A DNA stretch of 64,000 nt from an uncultured Lachnospiraceae bacterium (GTDB lineage: Bacteria > Bacillota > Clostridia > TANB77 > CAG-508). Below the pieces are notes generated by a model. It was not told the origin of the DNA, made no database searches, and worked only from the letters and a program-made list of their open reading frames with translations. Position numbers and translations under genes: made by a program. The stretch lies in the NCBI GenBank assembly GCA_964497325.1, contig CAZCCM010000001.1:10103-74102 (forward strand). The letters are read 5' to 3'. Below are positions 60,562 to 60,763 of this stretch, one piece after another. Within the stretch, counting starts at the first letter, position 1, and the number at the start of each line of letters is the position of its first letter.

Positions 60562-60675
60562 AAAAAGCTCCCTTTTTTATTGGAAGCTTCTCTAAACAAG
60601 GGTTTTATAGACTAAGACATAAGAAATAAGAAATAAGAATTGATAATTTGAAAACCCTTCTTTTCTGATCAGGCT
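60562..60675 (-). ncRNA. Candidate small structured RNA (about 115 nt). It has a 5' long hairpin whose loop carries 4-5 'UCUUA' repeats, and a 3' intrinsic terminator.
   Basis: The minus-strand transcript is predicted from the palindromic promoter (-35 at 60710-60705, -10 TACAAT at 60687-60682). The stem 'GAAGGGUUUU'/'AAAACCCUUG' (60661-60652 and 60607-60598) encloses a 45-nt loop. The terminator 'GAAGCUUCC-AAUAAAAAA-GGGAGCUU' is followed by U6 (60593-60562). Confidence 0.3.
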
Positions 60676-60702
60676 GAAAGCATTGTAGATTAGTATCTTG
60701 TT

Positions 60703-60747
60703 TTTGTCAATACTTTTTATTGACAAAATTTTTATTAAATATATAAT
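60703..60747. promoter_or_regulatory. Perfect 10-bp inverted repeat 'TTTGTCAATA-N5-TATTGACAAA' providing a consensus TTGACA -35 on both strands. It is a divergent promoter pair or operator.
   Basis: On the plus strand, TTGACA (60720-60725), 16 nt, TATAAT (60742-60747) sits upstream of the methyltransferase RBS and ATG at 60764. On the minus strand, TTGACA (60710-60705), 17 nt, TACAAT (60687-60682). Confidence 0.5.
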
Positions 60748-60763
60748 TTTTGTAGGAGAATTT

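Follow-up and report, generated by a model that had tools for sequence, protein, structure and literature searches.

Organization of the radC–methyltransferase region

The window, by which we mean the whole 64-kb stretch of DNA that was analyzed, comes from an uncultured Clostridia lineage and has a G+C content of 25.6%. A 492-bp intergenic gap separates radC from a methyltransferase gene on the opposite strand, and both divergent promoters described below lie within it. The genes flanking the gap are the following.

59627–60325, minus strand: radC, with a probable AUU start at 60325–60323 and the SD AGAAGGGA at 60339–60332
60754–60759 and 60764–60766, plus strand: SD AGGAGA and ATG of the methyltransferase gene, with a predicted mRNA leader of ~10 nt
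60764–61492, plus strand: methyltransferase gene, class I SAM-dependent and TrmN6/YfiC-like, below family cut-offs; followed by rsmI

radC is the first gene of a minus-strand operon, radC-mreC-mreD-PBP2, related to cell shape and the cell wall. Judged from its sequence, radC probably starts at the AUU at 60325–60323 rather than at the ATG at 60271. An in-frame TAG is located at 60340–60338, and no ATG, GTG or TTG occurs before the first ATG at 60271; the 18 radC codons IKIQELPLLERPYEKLEN upstream of this ATG are nevertheless conserved, the regions considered being those of the window, L058 (1–80) and the equivalents in L004, L016 and L056. Compared with the sister species, ELPLLERPYEKLEN of radC carries five synonymous changes and no nonsynonymous ones. 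RadC family profiles start at residue 11–14 of the AUU-initiated protein, and in two other relatives (P0122 and P0123) an intact TTG start is found four codons further upstream of the radC AUU. A literature search combining an AUU start with radC turned up nothing relevant.

On the other side of the gap, the -10 element of the methyltransferase promoter ends 6 nt before the SD AGGAG, so that the mRNA would begin about at the SD, and this -10-to-SD geometry is identical in nine lineages. A DUF4321 gene (85 aa) is located between the radC operon promoter and radC in the relatives L003, L007–L010, L012, L013, L017 and L059 and is absent from the window species and its closest relatives, L004, L016 and L056. 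A replication origin at the strand switch was considered and rejected, since genes return to the minus strand after just two plus-strand genes.

Two predicted back-to-back promoters meet in a 25-bp palindrome

The center of the divergent region is occupied by a palindrome and two predicted promoters.

60703–60727, no strand assigned: palindrome TTTGTCAATA-CTTTT-TATTGACAAA, 25 bp, perfect; two back-to-back -35 hexamers with A-tract flanks
60720–60747, plus strand: P+, the methyltransferase promoter; TTGACA at 60720–60725, 16 nt, TATAAT at 60742–60747; 12 of 12 consensus positions
60682–60710, minus strand: P1; TTGACA at 60710–60705, 17 nt, TACAAT at 60687–60682; 11 of 12 consensus positions

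The original prediction had described a perfect 25-bp palindrome that provides a consensus -35 on both strands, each followed by a -10 at 16–17 nt. Both the palindrome and the promoter elements are present as described, and scoring gave 12/12 on the plus strand and 11/12 on the minus strand. P1 and P+ conform to the sigma-70/sigma-A arrangement of two hexamers with a 16–18 nt spacer and are predicted promoters in this sense. The -10 of P1 is followed by the discriminator GCTTTCA, and the predicted TSS of P1 is A60675. The predicted TSSs of the two promoters are ~79 bp apart, and their transcripts would not overlap.

The whole window contains five sites that match at least 11 of 12 positions on either strand, two of which are P1 and P+, and the mean in shuffled sequence is 7.8. 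One site of this quality is readily expected by chance, but a pair spaced by 9 bp and shared with relatives is rare. The palindrome itself is the sole match in the 64-kb window at up to three mismatches (0.05 expected by chance).

An orphan terminator and a separate radC promoter

Between P1 and radC, three further elements were recognized on the minus strand.

60561–60589, minus strand: T1, intrinsic terminator; AAGCUUCC, 9-nt loop, GGGAGCUU, U6 at 60566–60561
60440–60463, minus strand: T2, weak hairpin just upstream of P2; AAGCUU-AAAAUAU-AAGCUU, then UUAUA
60389–60417, minus strand: P2, promoter of the radC operon; TTGTTA, 17 nt, TGgTATAAT (extended -10), preceded by an A-tract

T1 corresponds to the canonical terminator that had been expected well before radC. 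Its stem of 8 bp, which A/U pairing could extend, has a folding energy of -16.6 kcal/mol (z = -5.9, equaled by 0 of 200 shuffles), and with a G+C-containing hairpin followed by a U-tract (U6) it has the features of an intrinsic (Rho-independent) terminator; a consensus terminator scan missed it only through the 8-nt loop limit of the scan. The counterpart of T1 in the sister species, represented by the contig L001, has z = -4.2, a U.A in place of U.G, and a longer stem. T1 is located 114 nt downstream of P1, and there is no upstream minus-strand gene that it could serve. P2 follows T1 at a distance of ~145 nt. All relatives have it, and no other part of the intergenic region is as well conserved (91% identity to L001, 80% to L004). 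Since an orphan terminator stands 114 nt after a strong promoter and radC has a promoter of its own, the segment from P1 to T1 looks like a short independent transcription unit.

T2, with its hairpin at 60463–60445, is not significant alone (z = -1.2); identity to L001 is 93%, and L004 has AAGCUUG/CAGGCUU at this place. It is possible that T2 acts as a back-up terminator or an insulator. The spacer between T1 and P2 also contains a cre-like 14-bp perfect palindrome, TGTAAAATTTTACA, at 60496–60509. This candidate was rejected: it has no central CG, is absent in L001, and is broken by a C/T polymorphism in the same-species contigs L049 and L052, and it is probably non-functional.

P1 and P2 are conserved among relatives

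The lineage is poorly sampled, and syntenic loci were recovered for about nine distinct lineages. Only eight methyltransferase homologs exceeded 56% identity, with the next best at 41%. A search of genome contigs with a single methyltransferase protein yielded no relatives, and the same type of search with an alignment yielded three MAG relatives at 58–59% identity, none carrying the RNA described below. Metagenome contigs gave relatives at 37% identity or less only, which were of no use for the intergenic region, and a pattern search of viral contigs gave 0 matches.

The geometry of P+ (TTGACA-16-TATA[AC]T, 6 nt, SD) is identical in all nine loci that have the methyltransferase gene. The core of P1, TTGA[CT]N-17-TAnnAT-G, was found in 10 of 10 distinct loci (the window, L001, L003, L004, L016, L007, L010, L017, L012 and L056) together with the discriminator GCYTnAA, in surroundings that are otherwise randomized; a rough hand estimate, uncomputed, puts the chance of matching this pattern at ~1e-3 per locus. 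In all relatives, the arms of the palindrome consist of a -35 hexamer with AA(A). The two hexamers are separated by 9 bp in the window, L001, L004 and L016 and by 15, 24, 24, 35 and 48 bp elsewhere, and P2 lies 244–265 nt from the P1 start in all relatives. In L056/L057, P1 is kept without a partner promoter and tblastn found no methyltransferase gene, indicating that P1 is not a by-product of its neighbor's symmetry. In these two contigs, whose RadC is 83% identical, non-coding DNA of ~1.3 kb separates rsmI from radC (positions 657–2000), and P2 is also kept there.

A further short motif, TTTTGA[AG]AT, lies ~130 nt downstream of the P1 start (about 60545–60553 in the window, minus strand) and is present in all ten loci, which besides the window are L001, L003, L004, L007, L010, L012, L016, L017 and L056, with flanks that are not alignable. 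A third promoter at this motif was considered and rejected, since no -10 follows it. In L004, L016 and L003, TTTTGAAA is repeated 3–4 times.

Anatomy and folding of the candidate RNA

The predicted transcript from P1 to T1 has the following parts, all on the minus strand.

60561–60675, minus strand: candidate small RNA, ~112–115 nt, starting at the predicted TSS and ending in the T1 U-tract
60665–60672, minus strand: CUGAUCAG, an 8-nt palindrome in the 5' end, occurring once in the window and unchanged in L001
60651–60659, minus strand: 5' arm of the main stem, AAGGGUUUU, within AGAAGGG-N7-AUUA
60607–60650, minus strand: loop of 44 nt, pyrimidine-rich, with the heptads UUCUUAU (three times), GUCUUAG and UCUAUAA
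60598–60606, minus strand: 3' arm of the main stem, AAAACCCUU, pairing with 60651–60659 (9 bp)

The 5' end, which includes CUGAUCAG, is predicted to be single-stranded over 17 nt. The original prediction had proposed a structured RNA of ~115 nt with a 10-bp stem and a 45-nt loop carrying UCUUA repeats. The predicted stem-loop is slightly smaller, with a stem of 9 bp, in which the outer G.G is unpaired, and a loop of 44 nt, and the repeats were borne out by Tandem Repeats Finder, which reported a 7-nt period with 3.9 copies at 60613–60639. Folding of the minus strand from 60676 to 60555 gave an MFE of -27.6 kcal/mol with z = -2.67, and the plus strand of the same region gave z = +1.0. The main stem-loop alone was not significant (z = -1.3, matched by 20 of 200 shuffles). 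The fold signal of the minus strand comes mostly from the terminator hairpin (z = -5.9), and the main stem-loop is no better than shuffled sequence.

Rfam 15 gave 0 matches at gathering thresholds anywhere in the window. Under permissive settings, the best matches in 60250–60800 had E values of 0.16–4 and were of the low-complexity or terminator type, so that the region matches no Rfam family on either strand. As for a small protein or type I toxin, the only ORF of at least 30 aa (60592–60726, TTG start) begins upstream of the predicted TSS, and the differences between the window and L001 were nonsynonymous only, unlike a coding-type substitution pattern. An 11-codon AUU ORF, the LIRxEGF frame and a 25-codon ORF in L010 were considered as peptides and rejected on the grounds of nonsynonymous substitutions and the lack of canonical starts.

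The candidate RNA unit is recognizable in two species

The RNA region is 100% identical in the same-species contigs L049, L050 and L054, with two polymorphisms, both in the downstream A/T spacer. The only recognizable homolog of the RNA is in the sister species (methyltransferase 76% identical), where the whole promoter-stem-loop-terminator unit is present. L001 and a second contig, L058, come from the same sample (ERR13731087) and their starts abut at a poly-G/C run, which gives the full methyltransferase–small RNA–radC region of the sister species.

Identity between the window and L001 is 73% over the RNA, where the stems reach ~80% and the loop 62%, and 69% in the flanking A/T spacer. That the RNA body is barely more similar than the adjacent spacer counts against a small RNA. 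The stems are kept in L001, with 97% of cells paired against 29–77% in slid registers. Two of their pairs switch between UA and UG by a change on one side, one inner pair is broken, and 0 of 17 pairs changed on both sides in what are only two distinct sequences, so that covariation was not seen. The L001 loop is one heptad shorter and keeps the UCUU units. A covariance model built from the window and L001 identified neither a paralog in the window nor a homolog in any of 18 other loci; its other matches had E values of at least 0.007 and were on the wrong strand or inside genes. In relatives at 56–64% methyltransferase or 83% RadC identity, P1 is kept, the downstream sequence is unrelated, and T1 is missing.

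Resemblance to the radC initiation region

The AGAAGGG-N7-AUUA in the RNA (60661–60642) repeats the radC initiation region (60339–60320) on the same minus strand. AGAAGGG occurs only three times in the window on both strands, and the other GAAGGG copies are inside coding sequence. The same pair of motifs is found in the sister species (L001 and L058). In both species the motif in the RNA is followed by the 11-codon AUU ORF, in which all six differing codons are nonsynonymous; we therefore do not read it as a conserved peptide.

This resemblance raises the idea that the RNA mimics the radC initiation region while its heptad UCUU loop titrates a factor controlling the AUU-initiated translation of radC and the downstream cell-shape genes. 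What is titrated could involve initiation-factor discrimination at AUU, an RNA-binding protein of the S1 or KH type, or the ribosome. We regard this as a far-fetched reading with hardly any claim to be correct. Were it true, a fast-evolving non-coding unit would occupy a conserved promoter slot beside the mre operon throughout the lineage.

Discussion

A small RNA gene extending from P1 to T1 is the best explanation of the locus; it rests on the anatomy of the unit and on two sequences, and we give it about an even chance of being right. According to this model, P1 would be a genuine housekeeping-sigma (sigma-70/sigma-A type) promoter arranged back-to-back with the methyltransferase promoter and would drive an independent non-coding RNA of ~114 nt, ending at T1, in the window species and one sister species. 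T2 may back up T1, and the radC-mreCD-PBP2 operon would start further downstream from its own promoter, P2. We infer that the RNA is made and acts in trans. Its exposed UCUU-repeat loop or its 5' end would pair with purine-rich mRNA segments; alternatively, either element would bind a multimeric RNA-binding protein. When the loop and the 5' end were compared with the 64 translation-initiation regions of the window, no target stood out: the best duplex had -20.8 kcal/mol against a mean minimum of -20.5 kcal/mol for shuffled loops, and the sole strong match of the 5' end was the RNA's own complementary strand.

The first alternative is that P1 is a second, upstream promoter of radC-mreCD-PBP2, with the stem-loop and T1 forming a 5' leader or attenuator that permits regulated read-through. 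A possible route is translation of the 11-codon AUU uORF, which has a radC-like SD-N7-AUU. The orientation of P1, which is that of the operon, and the constant P1–P2 distance in all relatives would suit such a leader, as would the sharing of the rare AGAAGGG-N7-AUUA by the RNA and the radC start and the presence of the 11-codon ORF in both species. However, a conserved P2 with its A-tract intervenes between T1 and radC, the T2 hairpin stands ahead of P2, and inspection revealed no antiterminator pairing. The AUU uORF that a leader-peptide attenuator needs is present, yet all six of its differing codons are nonsynonymous, and the leader sequence is not conserved in other relatives. We consider a leader unlikely, though worth keeping in mind.

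In a second alternative, divergent transcription itself is what matters: P1 would adjust the activity of the methyltransferase promoter, either by competing for RNA polymerase or by local supercoiling. Its transcript would then be incidental, with T1 and T2 stopping it short of the radC operon. Conservation of the core promoter while the transcribed sequence is free to vary would be expected under this scheme, and only 9 bp separate the -35 hexamers in the window and in L001, L004 and L016. Across the relatives, however, the hexamer gap ranges from 9 to 48 bp, P1 persists in L056/L057, which have lost both the methyltransferase gene and its promoter, and the RNA body including its GC-rich stems is kept in L001. 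This makes an effect of transcription alone rather improbable.

The original prediction had also suggested that a dimeric repressor could use the palindrome as its operator and so control the two transcripts together. Its perfect 10-nt arms in the window and the spacing of 9 bp, fixed in the four closest lineages, agree with an operator, but the arms are accounted for by two consensus -35 elements with their A-tracts, so that a separate operator is not needed. In addition, the inner positions differ in L001, L004 and L016, the inner TA/TA extension is missing in L001, and the spacing widens to 15–48 bp in other relatives. There is no adjacent regulator gene, and the palindrome, proposed as a marker of a regulon, has no second copy in the 64-kb window. 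With a variable hexamer gap and non-conserved inner bases, the operator is not supported and is very unlikely. Slimmer still is the prospect that these features are functionless chance products of very AT-rich intergenic DNA: shuffles of the 25.6% GC window do give 7.8 sites of at least 11/12 and the main stem is not significant, but about nine lineages keep P1 and P+ amid randomized sequence and T1 is both strong (z = -5.9) and conserved.

Returning to the small RNA, the sequence comparison suggests that it is probably a new and narrowly distributed gene, found in two species. If the RNA is made, an uncultured and poorly sampled Clostridia lineage of 25.6% GC would have an unclassified small RNA beside its cell-shape and cell-wall operon. 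The broader point is a conserved promoter slot: about nine lineages retain P1 and the P1–P2 distance even as the sequence transcribed from P1 turns over, and this slot fits the idea that small RNA genes evolve fast on fixed promoter and terminator scaffolds. The locus alters no general principle.

Comparison with known systems

P1 and P+ are a classical back-to-back divergent pair. As in other such pairs, two full -35/-10 promoters lie on opposite strands and the transcripts do not overlap; what differs here is that both -35 elements are exact consensus and 9 bp apart, which generates the 25-bp palindrome, and that one partner drives a predicted non-coding unit. In bidirectional promoters, by contrast, TSSs are 7–25 bp apart, most often 18 bp, and the symmetrical -10 elements overlap (Warman et al., bioRxiv 10.1101/2020.01.31.928960). 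The present pair shares with that class divergent transcription from a symmetrical promoter region, but its -10 elements are separate (60742–60747 and 60687–60682); with TSSs ~79 bp apart, it is therefore not a promoter of this type.

Regularly spaced short RNA motifs are presented to multimeric proteins in the TRAP and CsrB/RsmZ systems. HutP sites consist of three XAG motifs with 4-nt spacers (PMC2425495). The candidate loop has a short motif repeated 4–5 times in a predicted single strand, with the 7-nt period of the HutP sites. Unlike the RNAs of the HutP, TRAP and CsrA type, it repeats UCUU(A) rather than XAG, GAG or GGA, with a single UAG and no GGA, so that only the 7-nt period fits HutP.

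Some trans-acting small RNAs of Firmicutes expose pyrimidine-rich motifs, for example the C-rich loops of the RsaE/RoxS type. The candidate RNA is likewise short and has its own predicted promoter, a U-tailed intrinsic terminator and an unpaired pyrimidine-rich segment, which could pair with purine-rich ribosome-binding regions. It differs in having UCUU(A) repeats of 7 nt rather than CCC/UCCC and in being confined to two species. On this comparison, the candidate plausibly represents a small RNA gene of a known kind, outside the described families, rather than a new kind of system.
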